This document shows, piece after piece, positions 50,987-64,000 of a DNA stretch of 64,000 nt. The notes below the pieces were generated by a model, which saw nothing but the letters and a program-made list of their open reading frames with translations, made no database searches and was not told the DNA's origin. Position numbers and translations under genes: made by a program. Each line of letters starts with the position of its first letter. Position 1 is the first letter of the stretch. Source of the stretch: Candidatus Bathyarchaeota archaeon (GTDB taxonomy: Archaea > Thermoproteota > Bathyarchaeia > Bathyarchaeales > Bathycorpusculaceae); assembly GCA_963775465.1 (NCBI GenBank), contig CAVZIW010000010.1:1-64000 (forward strand), written 5' to 3'.

Positions 50987-53053
50987 TTAGGTTGCTCTTG
51001 GATTTATAGCGCCTTTGGTGTAGGGAATGAACTCGCGAATTTGCTCAATAGAGACCTTGCCTGCTTTTTCCCGTTGGTCTTTTGACAACTTGAGCGTTAG
51101 TGTCTTGAGAGTCTGCTTAAGCAAGTCTTTCCCCATGTTATCTCCAGGACTTATGATAATATATGATTTTGTTTTGGCTTTAACAGCATCTATCGGACCG
51201 CCAACAAAAACGGTTTCTTCGCCTACAACCAGGCCGACTGCGACTCGAAGTGGTGTATTCCTATACCAATTACGTTTCCCAGAAACAAAGAACGCTCCAT
51301 GAGGCACAGACTCGCCAGATGGACCACTTTTACTGAGCTGATCGACTTTAACCCAGTAAACATCCACCGATCCTGCATTCTCACGCCAAGCCCTAGAAAA
51401 AGACGCTGCGAATTCACTAGCTTCTTTTAGGGTTTGTTCGCCGATCGAGTTTCCTTCTGCTTTGACGACAACAAACGGCGCTCCTGTGATTTCTGCGTGG
51501 AAAACAACATCTTCCTGTGAGGTGTACTTCTTGACCAAAACTTCGTTACTGACAGTATCTTTGCCCGCAACCACCAACAAACCCTCCGATGAAAAAAACC
51601 AACGGAATTTTTCATACCACTCCCTGTTTGCCATTTCTTCTTTACGTTTAGAGAGGGCTTCCATAATTTCAGCAGGTTTGAGACTTTTCATGTGCTCCGC
51701 TTCGGCTAACTCGCGCTCAGCTCTTGATAGTTTGCGTTTCGAATCTTGCAGAGCTGACAGGGCACCCTGAGCTTTTTCTTTTGCGTGTTTGCCACGTTCA
51801 TAATATCTATTCGCGTTATCAAAAAGCGAATCCCGCAAGTTAAAGCTAAAATGAAAATTGTCTAAATCTAGGTTTAAGGCCAGGTTTTTGCCGTCAAACG
51901 ATTCAACATATATTGCAGGAATCTTGCCGGCTTTTTTAGCTGCCATAACGGTTGAGATAATTTTGTCCCAGTCGTGTCCCTTCTGGTTTGCTTTTATAAG
52001 TTGTTCTTGGAACGTTTGAAACATATTAAAATGGGCGTAGATTGTATCGCCGATCTGCTTGTCCTTCTCAGATTTCTTCTGATCCTCTACGATAGATTTC
52101 TCTTGTTCAGCTACCACTCGTTTGAGGCGTTGGGTTTCCTGTTTTAATTTGTCAGTCTCGATGCTTCCAGCTGCTTTCTCAGCAACAGTTACTCGCAAAT
52201 AAAACTCATCCAAAGCTTGATTGAAAGATTCGTAAACCTGAACTTTCAAACCCTCATAACGTTTGAGTTTGAAAGGGACGGCATCTAAATAGTCACCGTT
52301 CTTATCCAAGATTATACTCGGCTCAAACTTACACTCCAAAACAGGCAAAAGCAAGCTTTGAAGCGCCTCAAAAATCGCTTTAACTTCATCAACGGTCAAA
52401 TCATTGCTGGGTTTAGTTTTTTCTACTTGTGCCCTAAGCAAAAGCTCTTCAGCGTAAACTCCACCAATACCCAAAGACCTTGCTAATCCTCGAACAACTT
52501 CTACATTGGCAGTGCTTTTTAAGATATCTTGGAGTTCGAGCATGGATACTTTGAAGGGGTTTTTTCCGCTAGAAGGTGGAAGCACAAGAGTTACTTTGTG
52601 CAAGATGTCGCGGTCTCTCATCTTCTTAAATTCCAAAGCTTGGATGATTGCGTCTTTCTCGTTTGTCAAGATAATGTTACCGTCGCCGAAAAGTTCCACC
52701 ACTAACTTGAGCATTCCAATTTTGGTTTCAAAGGTAATTGTTACGATTCTCTCAAATCCAGCTTGCTCAATTCCTCTTAACCACGAATCACGCAGATACT
52801 TGCGCATCATCATGCAGAAAGCTGGGGGCTCAGCGGGGCTTTCTTCCGCATAGCTTGTCGAGTGGAGCCTTCTGCCTGCTTCAACCACCAGTCTTATGGG
52901 TGGATTGTCGGTTTTGTGCAGTTTAAAGATTAAAGTTTTTTCTCCGAATTGGTAGATGTTATTCACTCTGGAATTAGGGATTAGCGTTTTTAGTTCTTCA
53001 GTTGCTGCAGCTATATCAAAGCTTGTAAATTCTTTTTTACGCAACTCTTGCAC
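50987..53053 (-). CDS. rqcH: Ribosome quality-control factor RqcH/Rqc2 (NEMF family)
   Basis: TSFDI, F.MMMRKYL, ELFGDGNIIL, coiled coil, NANRYYE, WYEKFRWF, NEVLVKKY, FHAEITGAP. Confidence 0.93.
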   Translation of the reverse strand: MQELRKKEFTSFDIAAATEELKTLIPNSRVNNIYQFGEKTLIFKLHKTDNPPIRLVVEAGRRLHSTSYAEESPAEPPAFCMMMRKYLRDSWLRGIEQAGFERIVTITFETKIGMLKLVVELFGDGNIILTNEKDAIIQALEFKKMRDRDILHKVTLVLPPSSGKNPFKVSMLELQDILKSTANVEVVRGLARSLGIGGVYAEELLLRAQVEKTKPSNDLTVDEVKAIFEALQSLLLPVLECKFEPSIILDKNGDYLDAVPFKLKRYEGLKVQVYESFNQALDEFYLRVTVAEKAAGSIETDKLKQETQRLKRVVAEQEKSIVEDQKKSEKDKQIGDTIYAHFNMFQTFQEQLIKANQKGHDWDKIISTVMAAKKAGKIPAIYVESFDGKNLALNLDLDNFHFSFNLRDSLFDNANRYYERGKHAKEKAQGALSALQDSKRKLSRAERELAEAEHMKSLKPAEIMEALSKRKEEMANREWYEKFRWFFSSEGLLVVAGKDTVSNEVLVKKYTSQEDVVFHAEITGAPFVVVKAEGNSIGEQTLKEASEFAASFSRAWRENAGSVDVYWVKVDQLSKSGPSGESVPHGAFFVSGKRNWYRNTPLRVAVGLVVGEETVFVGGPIDAVKAKTKSYIIISPGDNMGKDLLKQTLKTLTLKLSKDQREKAGKVSIEQIREFIPYTKGAINPRAT

Positions 53054-53197
53054 CGTTTGAGGTCTATATTATATTCCACTATGAAATAACCATTTACGCT
53101 TACTTGGCAAAAAGATAGGTTGAGCAGGCAGAAACGGTTAATACTTAGGCATCTTTTTTAAGTAAGAACAAAATATATGTGCCAAGGATAGATTCAC

Positions 53198-53494
53198 ATG
53201 ACCCCTTTAGTTCGCCTCTACTGGATAAGAGTCACATTAGGAATAATCGCAGCCGCAATATCTGCAGTAATGGCTGAGTTAATCGGGACCCTAACTGACA
53301 TCACAACACTTGTAAACAGCATAACCATAGCCTTACTGATATATTTCATAACATACTACATTCTTCGAGCAGTCTTCAGAGACAAAATAGAAAAGCCCTC
53401 AAAAATCCTGAGTACAGGAATAGGAATGTACTTTTTTGCGTGGATAGCCTTCTTTGTCTTATTCTACACGATAATCCACATAGTAGTCGCATAA
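53198..53494 (+). CDS. Three-TM membrane protein, EMC6/Rab5ip-like
   Basis: 98 aa, 3 TMs, YWIR at TM1, C-terminal GIGMYFFAWIAFFVLFYTIIH. Confidence 0.65.
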   Translation: MTPLVRLYWIRVTLGIIAAAISAVMAELIGTLTDITTLVNSITIALLIYFITYYILRAVFRDKIEKPSKILSTGIGMYFFAWIAFFVLFYTIIHIVVA

Positions 53495-53511
53495 AAAAAT
53501 TTTATTATTAT

Positions 53512-53961
53512 TTATTTTTCTTGATTCTTCTGGAGAAAATTCCCCATAGTCACTTGACTCTTATCACTGCGAAGTGTCTCAACCTTTTCAGGTACAGCAG
53601 CTTTGCCATTTGGGCTGGGAATTTCCATACGAGTTAAGATACGCATGCAGTCTGCCCAAGCAGAAAAATACCCGCGGTCAAAATCAGCATGCAATCCATT
53701 GCCCATCTGATCAAGAAACTCTTTTCGGTAAGCGTGCAAGGCAACCTTGTCACTTAAGTCAAGTTTAGAAAAGAAAGCGTAGTCATCAGAACTACTTTTT
53801 CTGGAAAGATACATACCGTAGAGTGCTCTAAAGTACCCTCGGTTCCAATCTGTTTTCTGCATTTTTTGTTTAACACGTTCCAGTTCACGCTCAGCTTCGG
53901 CAAACTGCCTGCCAACGATGAGCTGGAAGTACCTTGTAACTAAAGCTTGAGATATCGGCAT
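53512..53961 (-). CDS. Hypothetical helical protein coupled to radA
   Basis: 149-aa ORF starting 2 nt after the radA stop; internal RGYF repeat. Confidence 0.75.
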   Translation of the reverse strand: MPISQALVTRYFQLIVGRQFAEAERELERVKQKMQKTDWNRGYFRALYGMYLSRKSSSDDYAFFSKLDLSDKVALHAYRKEFLDQMGNGLHADFDRGYFSAWADCMRILTRMEIPSPNGKAAVPEKVETLRSDKSQVTMGNFLQKNQEK

Positions 53962-53963
53962 AT

Positions 53964-55007
53964 TTAGCGTCCACGTGATTTAGTTGCTTTCTCTTCTTCA
54001 GAGACATCTTCTATTCCGTTTTCGGTGACTTTAAGGATTTCCTCTCCTTCGGGCAAATATGGGCTTGAAACCAGCCTTGCGATTCGTATGGGTCCATGGG
54101 AAGCACGACGCAAGTAAATGCGAGTGTGACTAGTGTGACCAACAATATTTCCACCAATTGGGTGGATAGCGTCGCCAAAGAACTGGTCAGGTTTTGCCAT
54201 AACTTGATTAGTGACGACAGCCGCTGCATTAAACGCGCGAGATAACGCGACAAGCTTATGCATATGCTTGTTAAGTCTTTGTTGGCGTGACGCCAACATT
54301 TCTCTGCCTATGTATTCGCTTCGGAAATGTGCGGTTAACGAGTCAATTATGATGAGTTTAATATTGTTTGCTTTGATTATTTCGTCAGCGTTCTCCAAGA
54401 GAAACATCTGATGATCGCTTGTGTAAGCTTCTGCATAAATAATGTTTTTAACAGCCTCTTCAGGTTCTAAACCTGCGAATCTTGCCATTTGCACTATGCG
54501 TTCAAGCCTAAACGTGTTTTCTGTGTCAATATAGAGAGCTGCGCCGTTTAACCCCCCTTTTTCAGGAGGAAGTTGAACATTAACGCACAACTGGTGGCAC
54601 ATTTGGCTCTTACCGCAACCATATTCACCGTAAAACTCAGTTATGGTTTGGGTTTCTAAACCACCATCAACCATTTTGTCCAATGCTTTACTGCCCGTGG
54701 TGATTCGTGCTACAGATTTGCGCATTTTGAACAATTCGTCAGCGCGAATAAATGCTATCCCGATGGAAGATCGTGCGGCTTCTATAATTTGGAAAGCTTT
54801 CTTCTCGCTAACACCGACTGGGTCAAGTTCCCTGCTGGTTGCCATAGCTACGGATTCCACGGTATGGTAACCGAGGTCACGCAGTTTAGCCGCGGTTGCG
54901 GGACCAACTCCTGGCAGGTCTTCTATAAACTCGTATTTTTTCTTATTTGCTTCCATTTGAGCCTGTCTATCGCTGAATTCTTCTGCAGGACCATCGTCTT
55001 CAGACAT
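53964..55007 (-). CDS. radA: DNA repair and recombination protein RadA
   Basis: HhH EDLPGVG, FIRADE, GEYGCGKSQ, YIDTENTF, DSLTAHFRSEY, IGGNIVGH. Confidence 0.97.
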   Translation of the reverse strand: MSEDDGPAEEFSDRQAQMEANKKKYEFIEDLPGVGPATAAKLRDLGYHTVESVAMATSRELDPVGVSEKKAFQIIEAARSSIGIAFIRADELFKMRKSVARITTGSKALDKMVDGGLETQTITEFYGEYGCGKSQMCHQLCVNVQLPPEKGGLNGAALYIDTENTFRLERIVQMARFAGLEPEEAVKNIIYAEAYTSDHQMFLLENADEIIKANNIKLIIIDSLTAHFRSEYIGREMLASRQQRLNKHMHKLVALSRAFNAAAVVTNQVMAKPDQFFGDAIHPIGGNIVGHTSHTRIYLRRASHGPIRIARLVSSPYLPEGEEILKVTENGIEDVSEEEKATKSRGR

Positions 55008-55076
55008 AAATTTCACACTTTTATGTTGATGTATAATACGAGCTATTTAAAACACGCGAATAGACATACATTTTTC

Positions 55077-55709
55077 TTAGTGGAGGGCTAGTTGAAAGTG
55101 AAATTTTAAAGTACAGATTTCTCCTTTGATATTCACCTTCCGCATATTCACAAAAAATTTAGGGAGGAATAACGCCCATTCGTGAGCATTCTTCTTTGAG
55201 ACTACTTTAATGTTTTTTAAGGATTGACATTTCTGGACATATTCGTCGCCTTCAAGGGTGCTTTGACGGAAGTCGCTGATTAACTGTTGTATCTCCATGG
55301 TAATCTCATAGATCCTTGCTTTAATTTGATCCATATAAGAGACCGCTTATTCCTGAACAATCACTTCGGAAGGTGTCAAAGCTGTCTTTATTACGCCGTC
55401 TTCAATACGTAGGATTCGAGTTGATACTCGAGCGACGCTGGGGTCATGTGTAACCATGATCATAGTTTTACCCAGTTCCTGATTATTTTTAACAAGGTAG
55501 TCCGCTATGATTCTTGGATTTGCCGTATCCAATTCGCCAATAGGTTCATCTGCAAGTATGATAGGTGCGTCATTAGCTAGAGCGGAAGCTATTGTGATTC
55601 TTTGTTGTTCTTCTCCAATTAATTCTTCAGGCTTATGACGAGTTCGGTCTTGTAGTCCAACGGTATTGAGAAGATCTTGAAAGCGTTGTTTTTGTTCCCG
55701 CGTGGACAA
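55077..55709 (-). pseudogene. Truncated LolD/MacB-type ABC ATPase remnant
   Basis: No Walker A; degenerate signature LIGEEQQR, ADEPIGELD, MVTHD; in-frame TAA at 55347-55349 separates a C-terminal extension (55077..55334). Confidence 0.75.
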
Positions 55710-55915
55710 GTTTGGTAATAATTGTCAGAGTCGATCTAGCGTGGTGGGGATTTTGAAAATTAATGCTCTATCAGGTGTATTCTATATGATTTCCAGATTT
55801 TTTATGTGGTCTTCTTTCTGAAATAATGTGTTTTGATGTTGTTGCAATACTTGCGCAACCACAAATTTTCATAAGTAATCTTTCAGAAGTATTACTTTAT
55901 ACTGGAAGAGTTCTT

Positions 55916-56041
55916 GTGGCTAAATGTCCTAACTGCGGAACAGAAGTTGCTAAACCGAGCCGTTCATTGAGGAATCATTTTTTCTGCGTTGAAGCCTATA
56001 ACTGCAAAAATTGCAAGATAACTTTCAAAGTGAAACATTAG
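55916..56041 (+). CDS. Small zinc-ribbon protein (Cren7-like zinc-finger family?)
   Basis: (M)AKCPNCGTEVAKP...YNCKNCKITFK; GTG start at 55916. Confidence 0.6.
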   Translation: MAKCPNCGTEVAKPSRSLRNHFFCVEAYNCKNCKITFKVKH

Positions 56042-56115
56042 CGCATGCTTGATAATTCTGCATTTAGGAAAGATTTTTAATACCGATATAATTTAGATTC
56101 TTTTGGCTGTTACCC

Positions 56116-56334
56116 TTGGATAGATTACAAGCTATGGCTATGTTGAAAGAGTTGGCTGTTAATGATTTAGTTGACCCTACCTATGTGTCGATGGTTGAAG
56201 CAAAGCCAAACCATTTTCAGATTCAAATTAAATGTGATTACAATAGACTAAAAATAGAAGAGTACGCAAAAAAAAACGGTTTAACTATATCTGAGGATAA
56301 AGACCGAAAATACTTAGTAATTTTCAAGCCATAA
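56116..56334 (+). CDS. Hypothetical protein
   Basis: 72-aa ORF with protein-like composition and a TATA-like box upstream. Confidence 0.65.
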   Translation: MDRLQAMAMLKELAVNDLVDPTYVSMVEAKPNHFQIQIKCDYNRLKIEEYAKKNGLTISEDKDRKYLVIFKP

Positions 56335-56504
56335 CTGTAAATCTTCTACTCTTGAGATCACCTTCACCCTTCTGCAACTTTTTGATCTTTAAATAAAAGC
56401 AAAATGTCCTTAGACTTTTTTTGGACCTTGGATGCAAAAGAACTGAATATTAAAAAATTGGGCGCCAGAAACAATTAAATCGCCAAGTTCATTTCTATAA
56501 GAAC

Positions 56505-57899
56505 ATGAATAATTTTCTGGACTCTCTCAAGCAAGAAAATATGAGTCTATTTACCGATTTCTACGAATTGACAATGTGTGCAGCCTACTTTGATAATAAT
56601 AACTTTGAACCTGCAACATTTGACCTCTTTATACGTCGTCTTCCAGAAAACCGATCATACTTTCTTTTTGCCGGTTTAGAACAATCGTTACAGTATCTGC
56701 AGACTATCAACTTTTCTGAAGAACATTTAGCTTACCTAAAAAACCAGGGCTTTGGAGAGGACTTTCTGGATTATTTATCTGGATTTAGCTTTTCGGGTGA
56801 TGTGTGGGCTATTCCTGAGGGCACAGTAGCTTTTCCCAATGAACCACTAATCCGCATAACTGCCCCAATAATCGAGGCTCAGTTGGTGGAAACATTCCTT
56901 CTAAACACCGTTAACCTGCAAACAATGATGGCAACTAAAGCTTCACGTATAGTCCACGCTGCAAAAGGCAAAGCCATAATTGAATTCGGTTTGCGTCGCG
57001 AGCACGGTATTGACGCAGGAATGAAGGTGGCACGGTCAAGCTACATTGCAGGCTGTCAAGGATCCAGCAATGTTTTGGCAGGCTTGACTTATGAGATTCC
57101 AGTGTTTGGTACTATGGCGCACTCATTTGTGATGTCATATGCAAAGGAAATTGATGCTTTTCGCGCTTTCTCCAAGACTTTTCCAAATAACTCAACTCTA
57201 CTTATCGATACTTACAATGACATTGCAGGTGCAGAAAAAGCCGCTGAAGTAGCTAAAGAACTTGAAGCAAAGGGATTTAGACTTGGTGGGATCCGACTTG
57301 ACAGCGGAGATTTAACAAAAACAAGTAAACAGGTAAGGAAAATACTTGATGAGCAAGGCTTGGGGTACGTTAAGATTTTTGCAAGCGGGGACCTCGATGA
57401 ATATCAAATTAGCAAACTGCTAAAGGATGAAGCACAAATCGATGCGTTTGGAGTAGGCACAAAAATGGGAACATCCGCCGACCGACCGTATCTTGATGTA
57501 ATTTACAAGCTATGCGAAACGATGAACCCTGAAGGGACCTTTTCGCCGATAATGAAACTAAGCAAGGACAAAAATACCTTGCCTGGGCGAAAACAGGTGT
57601 TCCGTTCTAAATCCAAGGAGGGCGTTTACCAAAAAGATACAATTGCGCTTGCTGAAGAAAAAATTGAGGGTGATCCCTTGCTCTCGAGAGTAATGGAGAA
57701 TGGCAAGTTGTCCTACAAGCTGCCATCTTTAAAGGAAATCCGATGCTCTGCACAGGAAAACATGTTCCAGTTACCTGCCCCGTACAAGGAATTAACTAAC
57801 GCTCCAACATATCCTGTTGAATTGAGTTTGAAACTTCAAGACTTAATTAAAACTTTAAGAAGCCAACTAACACAAAACGAAATTCTCCATAAATCCTAA
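56505..57899 (+). CDS. pncB: Nicotinate phosphoribosyltransferase
   Basis: TDFYELTM, EFGLRR, GTMAHS, LIDTY, IRLDSGD, FGVGT. Confidence 0.95.
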   Translation: MNNFLDSLKQENMSLFTDFYELTMCAAYFDNNNFEPATFDLFIRRLPENRSYFLFAGLEQSLQYLQTINFSEEHLAYLKNQGFGEDFLDYLSGFSFSGDVWAIPEGTVAFPNEPLIRITAPIIEAQLVETFLLNTVNLQTMMATKASRIVHAAKGKAIIEFGLRREHGIDAGMKVARSSYIAGCQGSSNVLAGLTYEIPVFGTMAHSFVMSYAKEIDAFRAFSKTFPNNSTLLIDTYNDIAGAEKAAEVAKELEAKGFRLGGIRLDSGDLTKTSKQVRKILDEQGLGYVKIFASGDLDEYQISKLLKDEAQIDAFGVGTKMGTSADRPYLDVIYKLCETMNPEGTFSPIMKLSKDKNTLPGRKQVFRSKSKEGVYQKDTIALAEEKIEGDPLLSRVMENGKLSYKLPSLKEIRCSAQENMFQLPAPYKELTNAPTYPVELSLKLQDLIKTLRSQLTQNEILHKS

Positions 57900-58019
57900 A
57901 GAACGCGAAAAAATTCAACTCATCTATATAAAGAATAATCCAATAACCTGTGAAAATGGCAAACACTTAATAGCCTTTCCAGAAAAGGTGTAACTCTAAA
58001 TCCAAACGGAGAACCAATA

Positions 58020-59225
58020 TTGCAAAATCAACCGGCTATAATAGCTGTTGGAAGAACAAAGTTTGGCGAATACTACGGCAAAGAACCAGAAAAGCTAATC
58101 GAGGAAGCTTGGCTTGCAGCTTCAAATGACTGCTGTATCGAACGTAAAGACCTCGAAGCGTGCTATATGTCTGACTGTCTTCTTCCCATCACAAACAAAC
58201 TGGGATTAGAAGAAGGGTTCCTCTCAGAATTAACCGAACTCCATGTACCCATGGAAGTAACCCGTTCCTTCAGCGCAGCACTTCTTACCGCTTGCCATGC
58301 TATTCAAGCAGGCGTTTATGGCACTGTTTTAGTTGGTGGAATAGAAAAAATGACTGACCGCTGGGACAAAATACGTGATGATCTTATGTTACTTGATGAC
58401 CCGTGGAGTTACTTTGCAGGTGGCACCCCTGAATCTAACCATGAATTAATGCTTCGCGCTTACATTAAAAAACATAATATTACAGGTCAAAATCTGGACA
58501 CGCTAAATCTGGCTCTCGCCGAGATAGCAGTCAAGAACCACGCCAACGCATCCAAAAACAAGTATGCTCAGTACCAAAGAAAAATTACTGTTGAACAAGT
58601 TTTAACCGCAAGAAAGCAATCTCATAAATCATTAGGGCTTTACGATTTTGCCCCCATATCTGATGGAGCATCTGCATTAATTCTCACCAATGAGTCTGTT
58701 GCAAAAGAAATAAGTGATCGACCGATCCACATTTTAGGACTTGGCGCAGGAACTGACTTCCTAAATTACCCGGCGCGGGAGGACCTATCCCGTTTTATCG
58801 CCGCTGAATATGCCATGAACACTGCTTCAAAAATGGCTAACATAGCGCCCTCAGATTTGCAGGTTTTTGAGGTTAATGATCAATCTACAGTGATGGAGAT
58901 GATTTCACTGGAAGATTTAGGTTTATACAGGCCTGGAACTGCTTGGAAAAATATTCATGAAGGTTTACAGAATAGCGAAAATAGCTACACTAAAAAGGGT
59001 ACACCCCTTTATGTGAACACTGATGGTGGTCTAAAAGCGGACGGCAACCCATTAGGGGCAACCGGCGGTGCACAGATTTTTGAGGTTTTCCATCAACTCC
59101 GCGGAACTGCAGATGAAAGGCAAATTAAAAATGCTGATGGCGTGCCAAAACAGGGCTGTGTCGTTGAATTTGAGGGGTTTGGAACCAAAGCTTATGCCAC
59201 AATACTAGGAGACAAAACTAGATGA
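58020..59225 (+). CDS. Thiolase-fold protein (archaeal acetoacetyl-CoA thiolase homologue) lacking canonical catalytic residues
   Basis: GRTKFG, GGIEKM, KNH.NA..N..AQ, PISDGASA, NTDGGL..G.P.GATG; overlaps the HMGCS gene. Confidence 0.88.
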   Translation: MQNQPAIIAVGRTKFGEYYGKEPEKLIEEAWLAASNDCCIERKDLEACYMSDCLLPITNKLGLEEGFLSELTELHVPMEVTRSFSAALLTACHAIQAGVYGTVLVGGIEKMTDRWDKIRDDLMLLDDPWSYFAGGTPESNHELMLRAYIKKHNITGQNLDTLNLALAEIAVKNHANASKNKYAQYQRKITVEQVLTARKQSHKSLGLYDFAPISDGASALILTNESVAKEISDRPIHILGLGAGTDFLNYPAREDLSRFIAAEYAMNTASKMANIAPSDLQVFEVNDQSTVMEMISLEDLGLYRPGTAWKNIHEGLQNSENSYTKKGTPLYVNTDGGLKADGNPLGATGGAQIFEVFHQLRGTADERQIKNADGVPKQGCVVEFEGFGTKAYATILGDKTR

Positions 59226-60730
59226 GTAGCGAACCTATCGAACGCCGGGTTTCGTACTTAGGAGATCGCCTTAAGGCTTGTCGTTGTCAATGCTGCGGCA
59301 AAGAATACTTCGAAGTACGCGACTACTGCAGCATTTGCGGCAGAAAAAGTTACGGAAAAATGGCTAGCATAGATCTATTTTTCGATAAAGGAAAACTTGA
59401 ACTTGCAACTTACATAAACGAACCCACAAACAAATTCATGAAACTTTCAAGTTTTATCTACGGAATCGTCTCTTTTCATGATGGCAAAATTCGGGTGCCC
59501 GCTAGACTAACCGACCAATTGCTTTGTGACGGTCAAGATGTTGACATATCAAGTTTTGAAGGCAGAGAAGTAATCCCAAGGTTCCGAAGACGCTATTCAG
59601 TCGGAAAAGGCGATGTAATTCCAACAATCTCATTAGCTTTCACCCTTGCAGATGAGTACTATCCTCACCAAGAATACAAAATCGTCCAACCAACTAAGGA
59701 ATATGAACTTCCAGGTATCATCGGCTATGGAGTCTACACTTCTCGTTTCCGTATTAAAGAAAGAAATTTGGAGCGCGCTGTACCATTCATAGATGAAGAC
59801 TCTGTTACAGCTTCCGTTGAAGCTGGAAAACTAGCGCTTATCCATTCGGGTCTGGATAGTTCGCTTGTAGGTAAAGTCTATGTTGGTTCTGAATCAAACC
59901 CGTATGCAGTTAAGCCAATTGCGTCCAAGGTAGCGCAGGTCTTGAAATTAGGTGAAGAAGACGACGATATACAAGGTGTTGACGCAGTGGACACAGAATT
60001 TGCGTGCAAAGCAGGTTCAAGCATGTTTAAGGATGCAGCTGCTCTCGTGAGTTATCCCCGTTCAAACATAAAAAACGCGATGGTAATAGGTGCAGATAAT
60101 TCGCAAGCAGCTCCACGCGGATGCCCCGGAGGCGAACTCGATACCTTTGTAGGTTATGGTGCCGCTGCATTTCTCTTTGGAAAATTAGATGTCATCGCAG
60201 AAGTTGAAGGTTGGTATTCTTGTACCTCAGACACACCTGACTTTTGGCGTCGCGATGGGGAACCATTTCCAAGCCACGGAGGACGTTTTACAGGCGACCC
60301 AGCTTACTTCAAACATGTTCGCAAAGCCGCTAGCAAACTCATGGAACAATCCAACTTGCAAGCATCCGACATTAACTATTTTGTGCCCCATCAACCAAAC
60401 CCAACGTTTCCAGTTAGAATAGCAAAAGAACTAGGCTTCAAAGACGAACAATTCTCTCCTTCACTAGTGATAAACAAGTTTGGTAACACATATTCCGCTT
60501 GCTCTCCTGCAGGTCTAGGTTCAGTACTTGACATTGCAGAACCTGATCAACGAATCTTAATGGTTAGCTACGGTTCAGGAGCCGGAAGCGACGCATACCT
60601 TCTACGAACCACAAGCCAAATTCTCGAAAAGCGAAAACGCCAAAAAATTAATGTGAAATCCCAAGCTGAAAACCCCTTCATAGAATATGTCGATTACACA
60701 ACCTATAGAAGACTCAAACTAGGAATGTAA
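59222..60730 (+). CDS. DUF35 (Zn-ribbon/OB-fold) fused to hydroxymethylglutaryl-CoA synthase
   Basis: N-terminal CQCCG...YCSICG + OB fold; HMGCS motifs DEDSVT, GSESNPYAVKP, EFACKAG, DFWRR, HQPN, GNTYS, SYGSGAGSD. Confidence 0.92.
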   Translation: MSSEPIERRVSYLGDRLKACRCQCCGKEYFEVRDYCSICGRKSYGKMASIDLFFDKGKLELATYINEPTNKFMKLSSFIYGIVSFHDGKIRVPARLTDQLLCDGQDVDISSFEGREVIPRFRRRYSVGKGDVIPTISLAFTLADEYYPHQEYKIVQPTKEYELPGIIGYGVYTSRFRIKERNLERAVPFIDEDSVTASVEAGKLALIHSGLDSSLVGKVYVGSESNPYAVKPIASKVAQVLKLGEEDDDIQGVDAVDTEFACKAGSSMFKDAAALVSYPRSNIKNAMVIGADNSQAAPRGCPGGELDTFVGYGAAAFLFGKLDVIAEVEGWYSCTSDTPDFWRRDGEPFPSHGGRFTGDPAYFKHVRKAASKLMEQSNLQASDINYFVPHQPNPTFPVRIAKELGFKDEQFSPSLVINKFGNTYSACSPAGLGSVLDIAEPDQRILMVSYGSGAGSDAYLLRTTSQILEKRKRQKINVKSQAENPFIEYVDYTTYRRLKLGM

Positions 60731-60832
60731 GAACTAGAAATTTTATTCTTTTATTTCATTGAACACAAAAGTTTTGGACTTGTTAAAGCCTTTAAATAAG
60801 TAGTTGTAAATACAGGCAATTGTGAATGAGCT

Positions 60833-61696
60833 ATGAGTCAGTGTTTGATGCTTTTTTCTGACGGTGGAGCACGTGGAAATCCAGGTCCAGCAGCCATCGC
60901 ATTTGTAGCCTTAAACGAAGGAGGCGAAATAATAAAGACGGCTGCCCAATTCATTGGTATTCACACAAACAACCAAGCTGAATATCGAGCACTCTTGTTA
61001 GGTTTAAGCTTTGCTAAAGGTACCAAAACCCAAGAGGTTATCTGTCACCTCGACAGCGAACTGGTTGCAAAACAACTCAACGGCGAATATACCGTAAAAA
61101 ACTCTCAGCTTCAACAACTCTGGCAAAAAGTCCAAGAACAAAAACGATACTTTAAACAAATTATTTTTGTTAATGTTCCAAGAGAGCATTCTCAAATCCA
61201 AAGAGCAGATGCACTAGTTAACAAAACTTTAGATGAACAAGCTGCAAAAATATCAACTAAAGGATTAATCGAATTAAATCAGACTTCGAATGGTGAAGTG
61301 GAAAGTAGTATGTTTGTACATGCTAGTATTCGCACAAGCAATATGGAGCGGTCAATAGATTTTTACTCAAAATTTTTAGGGTTAAGAGTTAAGAGTCGCC
61401 GAGAAATCAAGCAGACCAACGCGGAAATAGCTTTTCTCCAAGATTCCCAAAGTAAAGGTTGCACACTAGAGTTGACATTTTATCGTGATCAAGAAAAGTT
61501 TGATCAGCCACCCTATGAAAATCGACTATTTGACCATTTAGGTTTCATAATCTTCAACATGGAAGAAACTATTTCCTGCTTGAAAAACGCTGGTGTGACT
61601 GTGACGGATGAACCCTTCAAACTAAATGAGAACACAACAATTGCTTTTATTGAAGACCCAGACGGAACCTTGATTGAGTTAATCGAACATAAATAA
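60833..61696 (+). CDS. Ribonuclease HI fused to a VOC/glyoxalase domain
   Basis: DGGARGNPGPA, TNNQAEY, DSELV, ADALVN; then HASIRTSNM..SIDFY, LELT, DHLGF, FIEDPDGTLIELI. Confidence 0.88.
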   Translation: MSQCLMLFSDGGARGNPGPAAIAFVALNEGGEIIKTAAQFIGIHTNNQAEYRALLLGLSFAKGTKTQEVICHLDSELVAKQLNGEYTVKNSQLQQLWQKVQEQKRYFKQIIFVNVPREHSQIQRADALVNKTLDEQAAKISTKGLIELNQTSNGEVESSMFVHASIRTSNMERSIDFYSKFLGLRVKSRREIKQTNAEIAFLQDSQSKGCTLELTFYRDQEKFDQPPYENRLFDHLGFIIFNMEETISCLKNAGVTVTDEPFKLNENTTIAFIEDPDGTLIELIEHK

Positions 61697-61720
61697 ATTA
61701 TTTCACAACTAAAACGCAAA

Positions 61721-62377
61721 CTAAAACAAATAAATAAGCCAGCATTTCCATGTAGCAAATATTATCTTTAAATTAGCCTTATTATTTCCACCAATACGAG
61801 GCTTACTGCGTCTTGACGGAGCTACATAATTGATTTCGCCCACCTTAAAACCATGCTTTCTTGCAGCAACTAAAAATTCACCGCCAAAAGTTTCCCCACC
61901 AAGAATATTCTGAGTAATTGCTTGTTTTTTATAAGCTCTGAAATTCGAGAAAAAATCCGAAACTCCAATCGTTTTACCCAATGTTTTAGATGCTAATCTC
62001 TCTGAGAAACGAGGTACAACTGTTCGGGAAGCTACTACTACATCATAAACATTTAATTTTTCTACTAAGGCAAGTATCTTTTCAGGTGTGTTCTCTAAAT
62101 CAGAATCAATGGTTACTATTATTGAAAATCTAGATAGTTTTGCCCCAAACAGTAGACCCTTTGTCTGTCCTTCTCTAACTTTGCCAACAGCAATATCTGC
62201 AAACTGTTTTGCAACTTCAAGAGTTCCATCCAATGAACTATCATCAACAACGATTATTTCATGAGGTATTCCACTGAGTGTTTGGTTGACTCTACGTATT
62301 AGCTCTTCAATATTTTCTTTTTCGTTCCAAGTAGTAGTCACGACGGATACACCGTCAATTTTGAAGTTTGAATCCAT
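61721..62377 (-). CDS. GT2 glycosyltransferase
   Basis: TTWNE, VVDDSSLDGT, IDSDL, ASR. Confidence 0.85.
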   Translation of the reverse strand: MDSNFKIDGVSVVTTTWNEKENIEELIRRVNQTLSGIPHEIIVVDDSSLDGTLEVAKQFADIAVGKVREGQTKGLLFGAKLSRFSIIVTIDSDLENTPEKILALVEKLNVYDVVVASRTVVPRFSERLASKTLGKTIGVSDFFSNFRAYKKQAITQNILGGETFGGEFLVAARKHGFKVGEINYVAPSRRSKPRIGGNNKANLKIIFATWKCWLIYLF

Positions 62378-62590
62378 TAGGTTCCATAAGCCTCTTTGAA
62401 GGTTAAAAGTTCTTTTGCTTCTAAAAATTTTCTTCTTTTTCTCCTTCTTTTTTATGTCTTGTTTTTCTTTTCAATCTTGGGTTTTTCAGTCATACTACAG
62501 TGAGATGTAACATCGTAATGTTAAAATAATTGGAGGACTGATGTGTTAACGAATTTCAAAATTAGGATAAATTAATAGAAGGAATGAAAA

Positions 62591-63895
62591 ATGAGCAAAA
62601 GCGATAAACCCCACTTAAACCTTATAATCATGGGGCACGTTGATGCCGGAAAATCAACATCAACTGGGCACCTACTATACTTAGCAGGAGCAATTGACGA
62701 AAGGACAATCAAATCGTATCAAGACGAAGCAGAAAAAATGGGCAAAGGCACATTTGCATTTGCTTGGGTCCTTGACAACCTCAAAGAAGAACGTGAGCGA
62801 GGTGTTACAATTGACCTTAGATTCCTGCAGTTCCAAACCAAGAAATATAATTACACGGTAATTGATGCACCTGGTCACAGAGACTTCGTCAAGAACATGA
62901 TTACAGGCGCAAGTCAAGCAGATGCCGCAGTTCTGTTTGTTTCATCCAAAAAAGGTGAATTCGAAGCAGGTATCGGCGCAGGTGGACAAACAAGAGAACA
63001 TGCATTCTTAGGTTTCACTTTGGGTATCCGACAAGTTATCGTTGCAATTAATAAGATGGACGATATCTCATCTAACTACAGCCAAGAAAGATACGACGAA
63101 ATTAAGAATGAAGTTTCTAGAATGCTCAGAATGGTTGGCTATAAAGTTGATAAAATTCACTTTGTTCCATGTTCAGGATGGACAGGCGAAAACCTGCTTA
63201 AGAAAAGCGATAAAATGCCATGGTATACAGGTCCAACCCTCATGGAAGCATTTGATATGTTGGAAATACCAAGCAAACCAACTAACAAGCCCCTTCGTGT
63301 TCCAGTTCAAGATGTTTACACTATCACAGGTATCGGTACGGTTCCAGTGGGCAGAGTAGAAACAGGCACACTCAAGCCAGGAGCAAAAATCATCTTTATG
63401 CCATCAAACAAGACAGCTGAAGTTAAATCAATCGAAATGCACCACACTAGCATTCCAATCGCAGAGCCAGGCGACAACATTGGCATGAACGTTAGAGGAA
63501 TCGCAAAAAATGACGTTCACCGAGGAGATGTCGCTGGTCCAGCTGAAAACCCACCAACAGTTGCAAAAGAATTCATCGGACAAATCATTGTTATCTATCA
63601 CCCAACAGCTATCGCCGCAGGATACACACCAGTCCTCCACTATCATACAGGACAAATCGCAGTTAAATTCACTGAACTCATAAAGAAAATTGACCCACGC
63701 ACTGGACAAGTATCCGAAGAGCACCCAAGCTACCTCAAAACAGGAGATGCTGCTTGGGTACGAATGGAACCACTTCACCCCATCGCAATCGAAACCTTCA
63801 CTGATTTCGCAGAACTCGGTAGATTTGCAATTCGAGACATGGGCACAACTGTTGCAGCAGGCGCCGTTAAAGAAATAACTAAAAAGGGATTATAA
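62591..63895 (+). CDS. tuf: Translation elongation factor aEF-1 alpha
   Basis: [45 protein letters not shown]. Confidence 0.98.
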
Positions 63896-64000
63896 ACCTC
63901 CCTTTACCATTTTTGTGTTTGTTATTTTAACGAAATTCTAAATAATTATTTCCTGTTTTAGAGGTAACTTAAGTCTTATACGCAACAATTATTGTTTCTC

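Follow-up and report, generated by a model that had tools for sequence, protein, structure and literature searches.

A conserved thiolase-fold protein without thiolase catalytic residues, predicted to dock on a DUF35-fused HMG-CoA synthase in an order of Bathyarchaeia

The window analysed here is a stretch of 64,000 nucleotides (contig CAVZIW010000010.1, positions 1 to 64,000; contig C10 in our numbering) from the genome of a Candidatus Bathyarchaeota archaeon (GCA_963775465.1, called G000; class Bathyarchaeia, 2.4 Mb in 15 contigs, 92% complete). Two of its genes overlap. The first encodes a thiolase-fold protein in which the thiolase catalytic residues are missing, named pThl in the following, and the second a DUF35 domain fused to 3-hydroxy-3-methylglutaryl-CoA (HMG-CoA) synthase (HMGCS). 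Judged by sequence comparison and structure prediction, the pair makes up a new form of the archaeal thiolase/HMGCS/DUF35 complex, in which a conserved pseudo-thiolase is predicted to dock on a DUF35-fused and predicted active synthase. The explanation considered probable, though by no means certain, is that pThl is a former thiolase subunit of this complex that has lost catalysis and persists as an obligatory structural part of HMGCS. The two genes lie as follows.

58020..59225, + strand: pThl, thiolase-fold protein without thiolase catalytic residues; open reading frame (ORF) of 401 amino acids with TTG start, matching PF22691 and PF00108
59222..60730, + strand: DUF35::HMG-CoA synthase fusion; ORF of 502 amino acids, matching NF003274 and, by phmmer, 6ESQ_E
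59222..59225, + strand: ATGA overlap of 4 nt between the pThl stop and the fusion start, from the ORF coordinates

To our knowledge, isoprenoid lipids are needed by every archaeon. In the accepted picture, the thiolase/HMGCS/DUF35 complex channels acetoacetyl-CoA and thereby overcomes the unfavourable thiolase reaction; the Cys of the thiolase HDCF motif acts as acid/base. The complex is described as near-universal in archaea, and the motifs of its archaeal acetyl-CoA C-acetyltransferase (ACAT) are given as CxS, HDxF and GHx, in PMC12960953 (Nat Commun 2026). According to the same source, the complex no longer forms HMG-CoA when the HDxF His of the archaeal thiolase is exchanged (H284A), and a related thiolase is left almost inactive by H294Y. 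An acid/base role of the HDCF Cys is likewise reported in PMC12329534.

The thiolase fold of pThl is well supported. The protein matches Thiolase_C_1 (PF22691, 88.7 bits) and Thiolase_N (PF00108, 40.4 bits), and its predicted structure (predicted local distance difference test, pLDDT, 84.4; predicted template modelling score 0.89) has 6ET9_C as closest fold match (TM 0.88/0.90, root mean square deviation 2.5 Å, 33% identity). Its scores stay under every NCBIfam cut-off, with 265.9 against 420 for NF004720 and 212.2 against 600 for NF053570 (AcCoTHIOL_METTL), the equivalog model of the M. thermolithotrophicus thiolase. For the comparison of motifs, 61 active thiolases were used, namely the genome's own intact thiolase and 60 others, together with the solved thiolases 6ESQ_A and 7YVY_A. 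The pThl clade was sampled with 162 members, i.e., the best 120 database homologues and 42 loci from other genomes (30 and 12 further; L014 is cut by a contig end). The alignments place the four former active-site loops as follows.

58254..58274, + strand: former nucleophile elbow EVTRSFS, Cys absent (residues 79-85)
58869..58886, + strand: former HDCF loop, EVNDQS (residues 284-289)
59043..59051, + strand: former GHP loop, GNP (residues 342-344)
59166..59177, + strand: former C-terminal NxGG loop, EFEG (residues 383-386)

At the elbow, pThl reads EVTR-SFSAA where active thiolases read E-A-A-C-A-S-G, and MAFFT puts a four-residue gap or T81 (T81/R82) in the column of the nucleophilic Cys. This column holds Cys in 61/61 active thiolases and in 0/162 clade members. 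In the model, a strand (78-81) leads into a helix (84-96) around the old nucleophile; R82 is found in 40 of the 42 loci and S83, the Ser of CxS, in 41 (Cys in L046). The HDxF motif is absent, EVNDQS standing in place of EVHDCF. The position of its His (286) is Tyr in 32 loci, Asn in nine and Cys in one, and never His; the Cys is replaced by Q288 in 41/42 and the Phe by S289 in all 42, whereas H, C and F are kept in 61, 61 and 60 of the 61 active thiolases. The His of GHP, present in 61/61 active thiolases, is N343 in 41/42 loci and Ser in the remaining one, within the most conserved window of the whole protein (KADGNPLGATG). The HN(V/I)GG loop reads VEFEG, and E383 and E385 occur in 42/42 loci at positions where active thiolases have N (51/61) and G (58/61). 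Since no catalytic residue of CxS, HDxF or GHx is left, the channelled first condensation should be impossible in pThl.

A preliminary description of the window had reported a full-length thiolase with lost motifs and a 4-nt overlap with the next gene, and the ORFs and alignments bear this out in every detail. It had also pointed to two cysteines, in MSDCLL and LTACH, that might have taken over as nucleophile. Neither is a plausible replacement: C53 of MSDCLL is present in only 15/42 loci, and C92 of LTACH lies in helix 84-96, about 10 residues past the old nucleophile, at a position where sister thiolases that keep the catalytic Cys have a Cys too.

The loss of every catalytic residue and the sub-threshold NCBIfam scores would also be expected of a decaying pseudogene or a strain-specific accident, an explanation that can be practically discarded. 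In a word-indexed database search, 3252 of the 8000 candidates scored match pThl at E<=1e-20. The best 120 are 76-100% identical to it, and Cys and both His are missing in all of them, with shared substitutions. The 42 loci span 54-100% identity, and none has a broken or shortened reading frame, the single reported stop being the gene's end. The ratio of nonsynonymous to synonymous substitution rates (dN/dS, NG86) is 0.049-0.138 in the six closest pairs, with a median of 0.069 and a maximum of 0.162 in the 74 of 820 pairs with unsaturated dS; only close pairs are informative, because dS is saturated in the other 746. The adjoining fusion gene has a median of 0.052. The same substitutions thus recur across an order, in close and distant orthologues, and not in one strain as the preliminary description had allowed. 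Decay or accident was rejected on the losses shared by the 162 clade members and the low dN/dS. In an exhaustive search of 50%-identity representatives, a single full-length one, P0121 (559 bits), and some fragments are followed by matches of no more than 212 bits, with 39% identity, by which pThl is, at the level of sequence, a discrete family.

The distribution of pThl is bound to that of the fusion. In a class sample of 201 genomes, matches of pThl grade (identity >=54%) occur in 48 of the 51 genomes from the window's order and in G037, which is filed outside it. The full fusion lies directly 3' of pThl in 42/42 loci, with a spacing of -11 to +5 nt from pThl stop to fusion start. Where pThl is missing within the order, in G014, G044 and G050 (three genera), the fusion is missing too; these genomes carry instead a bacterial/haloarchaeal-type HMGCS of 454-466 amino acids (L058-L060), which scores 311.7 bits with NF041302 and 267.8 bits with TIGR01835, both under cut-off. 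Going by these presence patterns, the two genes share their gains, their retention and their losses. The comparisons describe a clade-wide loss of catalytic residues in a gene that is under purifying selection and always coupled to the fusion.

The partner gene encodes the only HMG-CoA synthase of this genome and has the marks of an active enzyme. Its parts are listed below.

59714..60718, + strand: HMG-CoA synthase domain (residues 165-499; span of TIGR00748, NF003274 above cut-off)
59270..59617, + strand: DUF35-like zinc ribbon and OB-fold domain (residues 17-132; phmmer to 6ESQ_E, E 2.9e-7)
60113..60124, + strand: PRGC insertion in an HMGCS loop (residues 298-301; from the alignment of fusions)

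Residues 165-499 score 356.8 bits with NF003274 (cut-off 244), as expected of an archaeal HMGCS, and the fusion scores 312.3 with TIGR00748, under its cut-off of 353.35. The tetrad E224, C262, H390 and N422 is invariant in 26/26 aligned fusions, and the predicted structure (pLDDT 80.8) has 6ESQ_I as closest fold match (TMt 0.86, 40% identity). A zinc ribbon followed by an OB-fold, all-beta in the model, makes up the N-terminus. The window's fusion misses both Pfam DUF35 models (PF12172, PF01796) at E<=0.01, and orthologous fusions match PF12172 in 18/26 and PF01796 in 8/26 cases. The earlier claim of a DUF35 domain fused to an HMGCS with intact motifs is thereby confirmed, by the invariant tetrad and the match to 6ESQ_E. 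Three zinc-ribbon residues, C22, C25 and C36, are invariant among the 26 fusions, and the fourth Cys is position 39. Residues 22-39 read CxxC...CxxC in fusions with a pThl partner and CxxC...CxxE, with Glu for the fourth Cys, in those with an intact thiolase partner.

A four-residue insertion (DNSQAA-PRxx-PGGELD) is found in 21/21 fusions partnered with pThl and in 115/116 full-length database homologues. It is absent from 5/5 fusions whose partner thiolase keeps both His. In the monomer model, the PRGC loop has a pLDDT <50. Judged by the pattern of this insertion across the alignment, the fusion has co-evolved with pThl.

The closest relatives of the pair are found in other families of Bathyarchaeia. 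Five loci of two such families (L047-L051) have the same two-gene unit, with a fusion of about 50% identity, and are the nearest tree neighbour of pThl. They differ in that their thiolases keep EAAC, EVHDCF and GHP, and their fusions have no PRxx insertion and a Glu for the fourth zinc-ribbon Cys. Altogether, 5/6 operon-linked thiolases fetched from other Bathyarchaeia families are intact, and 6/6 precede the same fusion. The sixth (L052 2497-3681, - strand; genome G004 of another family) has lost the nucleophile-Cys region and kept both His (EVHDAT, GHPVGATG), and its fusion is without the PRxx insertion; by its sequence, it could have arisen through an independent loss or stand for an intermediate stage. 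In a FastTree phylogeny of 78 rows, from which P0222, P0255 and representatives numbered above P0190 were left out, the pThl clade has a Shimodaira-Hasegawa (SH)-like support of 100 and a stem length of 0.48. It joins the operon-linked thiolases of other Bathyarchaeia families at SH-like 98, and the thiolase type found on contig C8 of this genome, described below, branches elsewhere. As sister families keep an intact thiolase before the same fusion, the catalytic loss in pThl is derived and took place inside an already fused operon. pThl thus descends from a thiolase of this operon whose counterparts in sister families have remained intact.

Other relatives lack the nucleophilic Cys as well. 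About 41 of the 118 full-length 50%-identity representatives nearest pThl (P0124-P0270) have S, D, P, E, N, G or A in its place, and most of them keep both His. Among these, P0127 and P0133 are named Thermoplasmata archaeon and P0143 Heimdallarchaeaceae. In all 11 metagenome loci fetched with P0127 (39-62% identity; 11 of 20 returned), the Cys and the two His are present, and several of them show the order HMGCS-thiolase-DUF35. For P0124 (Cys to Ser, second His to Asn), a genome-contig search gave only two distant loci, with 39% and 26% identity. P0184, a second fully degenerate relative (xQKN), had no match at E<=1e-60 in 301 phylum-sample genomes and none in the genome-contig search. Moreover, four near-identical metagenome contigs (L081-L084) have a pair of thiolase-like genes in tandem, with a DUF35-like ORF beside each.

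Conservation and modelling agree on a surface through which pThl may contact its partner.

58365..58469, + strand: clade-specific hyper-conserved segment and predicted DUF35-docking surface (residues 116-150; from conservation and the complex model)

Residues 119-142 rank within the most conserved 5% of pThl windows, with an entropy of 0.28 compared to 2.36 for the same stretch in active thiolases. The predicted complex of fusion and pThl has an ipSAE of 0.82 (runs 0.82, 0.83 and 0.82), and the best of three controls 0.00; the mark used is passed by 116/157 solved complexes and by 2/215 mismatched pairs. The runs share >=97% of contacts, and the partner has a pLDDT of 92. All contacts on the fusion side fall within residues 10-139, i.e., the DUF35 domain. 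Those on the pThl side involve residues 116-150, 201-204 and 249-256, and 16 of the 24 residues of segment 119-142 lie in the predicted interface. In the model, pThl is thus predicted to dock via residues ~116-150 onto the OB-fold of the fused DUF35 domain.

The proposal of the preliminary description that the thiolase is retained as a scaffold or pseudoenzyme fits these results well, as the losses are fixed under purifying selection, the coupling is constant and the constrained segment coincides with the predicted docking surface. Two of the analyses suggested in it turned out in the same direction, with substitutions fixed in all 162 clade members at a dN/dS of 0.05-0.14 in the alignment of orthologues, and an ipSAE of 0.82 against 0.00 in the modelling of the complex. 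Two points about the model weigh against the structural explanation, nonetheless. A like complex has been solved (6ESQ/6ET9), so that the docking score may be memory and measures likeness, not binding. The model is also 1:1 and shows no thiolase-synthase contact, such as the real oligomer has at its interface. The latter contact matters here: the fused CoA-binding site sits at the HMGS-ACAT interface (PMC12960953), and because the canonical site is placed there, pThl may be needed to complete the CoA site of the synthase. If pThl is a structural subunit, its retention would be explained by the need of the synthase for assembly and perhaps for this site.

The pair shares its three modules with the M. 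thermolithotrophicus thiolase/HMGCS/DUF35 complex (6ESQ/6ET9), of which the matched chains 6ET9_C, 6ESQ_I and 6ESQ_E are the thiolase, the HMGCS and DUF35. Unlike in that complex, pThl is without catalytic residues, DUF35 is fused to the synthase N-terminus, the synthase has a four-residue insertion and a separate thiolase+DUF35 pair exists elsewhere in the genome. The bacterial PhlABC, MucABC and P. fluorescens ACAT/HMGS-DUF35 complexes have the same tripartite layout, in which one subunit of the thiolase superfamily is non-catalytic and yet kept, and a fused synthase-DUF35 protein is also known from P. fluorescens (PMC12960953). The bacterial case is, however, a mirror image: there HMGS has lost E-C-H-N and ACAT keeps its Cys, while here HMGS is intact and the ACAT is dead (PMC12960953). 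The PhlC/MucB-type pattern, in which the Cys of CxS and GHx are kept and HDxF is lost (PMC12960953), is not seen in pThl, which has neither the Cys nor the GHx His. The pThl partner further differs from the bacterial complexes in its domain order, DUF35-HMGCS, and in belonging to archaeal primary metabolism.

If the first condensation no longer takes place in the complex, acetoacetyl-CoA has to come from elsewhere. The preliminary description had expected another source, and one is available. A second thiolase of this genome, G000:C8:128145-129320, has EAAC, EVHDCF and GHP intact and overlaps a free DUF35 gene (locus G000:C8:128145-129721). It scores 497.8 bits with NF004720/PRK06064 (cut-off 420). 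With NF053570 it reaches 439.5 bits, under the cut-off of 600, compared to 212 for pThl and 350 for the operon-linked intact thiolases. On the sequence of its motifs, the C8 thiolase+DUF35 pair likely supplies acetoacetyl-CoA in this genome. The product would then reach the synthase free or by transient contact and not through a built-in channel. HMG-CoA reductase is present as an intact copy (C6:232703-233800). A second copy (G000:C5:131-1226) is in three pieces with in-frame stops (one TGA, two TAA). A route to acetoacetyl-CoA over 3-hydroxyacyl-CoA dehydrogenase is unsupported in G000, as the one clear copy sits in a sugar-modification cluster (epimerase, DegT aminotransferase, hexapeptide transferase).

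Several observations weigh against this supply and, with it, against the structural explanation. The C8 thiolase lies between CobD and an ABC transporter, in no mevalonate context. G014, G044 and G050, which are without pThl and the fusion, keep only a C8-type pair, which points to a role of the pair that is independent of the fused synthase. Archaeal thiolase/DUF35 pairs also serve other pathways, according to bioRxiv 10.1101/2024.07.05.601840. There are also genomes with no visible substitute. At least one further thiolase-family match exists in 44 of the 49 pThl-bearing genomes of the class sample, and a bacterial-type thiolase (PF00108, 272-278 bits) in two of the remaining five. In G082 (95% complete), G190 (93%) and G026 (97%), no other match to PF00108 or PF22691 and no other protein like 3-ketoacyl-ACP synthase III (KAS III) was detected, and the model of 3-hydroxyacyl-CoA dehydrogenase gave only weak Rossmann-type matches. 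All three carry pThl, the fusion and HMG-CoA reductase, and the genus of G082 and G190 is represented in the collection by these two species alone. In an order-wide survey of genomes >=90% complete, the sole PF00108 match of G279 (91%) is of pThl strength. G228 (95%) has a similarly weak single PF00108 match; its genus otherwise resembles the pThl-free type. Genome incompleteness may explain the thiolase-less cases. A supply by another thiolase fails for G082, G190 and G026, unless the gene lies in the missing few per cent.

The old active site gives a further reason for caution. In a pure scaffold, an old active site usually drifts. In pThl, R82, S83, Q288, S289, N343, E383 and E385 are each fixed in 40-42 of the 42 loci at 54-100% identity, and H141 is kept in 42/42. 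The partner synthase gained its Arg-containing loop insertion at the same time. As a pattern in aligned sequences, the new fixed residues would fit either a ligand-holding pocket or a new catalytic set. It is therefore conceivable, though unlikely, that pThl is rewired and not dead. It would then have a new catalytic site or a high-affinity acyl-CoA site (for acetoacetyl-CoA capture or HMG-CoA handling), or the synthase would carry out both condensations with its help, and acetoacetyl-CoA would be made or acquired in an undescribed way. The strict association of the PRxx loop with pThl (21/21 against 0/5 other fusions) argues for such a role, as do the three genomes that have HMGCS and HMG-CoA reductase and no other thiolase, KAS III-like protein or clear 3-hydroxyacyl-CoA dehydrogenase. 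Repurposed thiolase folds with DUF35 partners are also known, e.g., Ltp2 and Sal (PMC12329534). E383 and E385 are kept even in L046, the deepest pThl branch. L046 nonetheless changes four old-site positions (S83C, 286C, Q288P and N343S), and position 286 varies throughout the clade. There is, moreover, no Cys nucleophile and no His that could activate a Ser. With 144 of 401 positions conserved at >=97%, conservation is high everywhere in pThl, and residue fixation alone is weak evidence for a rewired site. The further thiolases in most pThl-bearing genomes also speak against it, and the three exceptions could be due to the incompleteness of metagenome-assembled genomes.

A more radical form of the idea, in which mevalonate entry in this order uses no thiolase at all, is more doubtful again. 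Acetoacetyl-CoA would then be made or captured through undescribed chemistry by the complex of pThl and DUF35::HMGCS, with its rebuilt pocket (R82, S83, Q288, N343, E383 and E385) and the new Arg-containing loop of the synthase; both condensations might take place on the synthase, or pThl might perform a condensation or transfer that needs no Cys. It would explain how G082, G190 and G026 keep HMGCS and HMG-CoA reductase with no other enzyme of the thiolase superfamily.

Thiolase folds without the nucleophilic Cys, with a DUF35 partner and often a Tyr at the position of the HDCF His, are represented by Ltp2-ChsH2(DUF35), Sal-Shy(DUF35) and the T. brucei SCP2-thiolase-like protein (SLP) (PMC12329534). 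pThl could be such a retro-aldolase or SLP acting on another acyl-CoA, with an incidental linkage to HMGCS. Most clade members read YDQS, close to YDHF of Ltp2, YDCY of Sal and YDCF of TbSLP (PMC12329534), and 6OK1_A, 9MYR_A and 5AB4_A are among the fold matches of pThl. This assignment is nevertheless very improbable. Partners and pathway differ, and the catalytic Tyr/Tyr or Tyr/Cys of Ltp2 and Sal (PMC12329534) is not conserved. Tyr is present in only 32/42 loci, and an Ltp2/Sal-type aldolase is unlikely because the window's pThl has Asn (N286), like nine of the 42 loci, where the catalytic Tyr is needed. The catalytic Cys of Sal YDCY corresponds to Q288. pThl is not known to match the second Ltp2 Tyr, and the GHP position is N or S. 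Furthermore, the best fold and sequence matches of pThl are thiolases of the mevalonate complex, the linkage to HMGCS holds in 42/42 loci with joint loss, and the locus has no hydratase or steroid-type neighbours.

The pair is flanked by genes for a nicotinate phosphoribosyltransferase and for an RNase H-glyoxalase fusion; as both are unrelated to it, pThl and the fusion form a two-gene unit. The RNase H-glyoxalase protein (60833-61696, + strand, 287 amino acids) is of an unusual composition, in which RNase H-like residues 5-131 (RVT_3 61.7 bits, RNase_H 34 bits) are joined to a VOC/glyoxalase part (162-283; PF00903, 55 bits). On the pThl side, a 120-amino-acid ORF (55347-55709, - strand) resembles, by eye, the C-terminal half of an ABC-transporter ATPase without the N-terminal half, perhaps as the remnant of a truncated gene. 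Positions 52000-64000 of the window gave no match in Rfam and tRNA scans. As for expression, metatranscriptome contigs with <=1 mismatch overlie parts of both the pThl and the fusion gene. These runs consist of short contigs only (shares 0.06-0.08), so that uncovered parts are uninformative, and as DNA can occur in RNA libraries, the matches are a weak hint of expression.

A literature search, with supplements excluded, found no paper on a dead thiolase partner of archaeal HMG-CoA synthase, and the available part of PMC11052028, which treats Bathyarchaeia, mevalonate and acetoacetyl-CoA, makes no mention of thiolase. In public annotation (JGI names), pThl is labelled 'acetyl-CoA C-acetyltransferase'. 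Metabolic reconstructions of Bathyarchaeia therefore credit these organisms with a thiolase that is possibly not there.

Throughout one order of the Bathyarchaeia, a class in which many genomes stem from metagenomes, the architecture of the thiolase/HMGCS/DUF35 complex appears to be kept although its thiolase subunit is dead. This leaves two possibilities: the channel can be done without and the subunit serves assembly only, or the first step follows an unknown route. Together with its bacterial mirror image, pThl would be a good system to study why pseudoenzyme subunits persist. For membrane-lipid synthesis in these archaea, it would mean that, if pThl is non-catalytic, the first step must be supplied from elsewhere.

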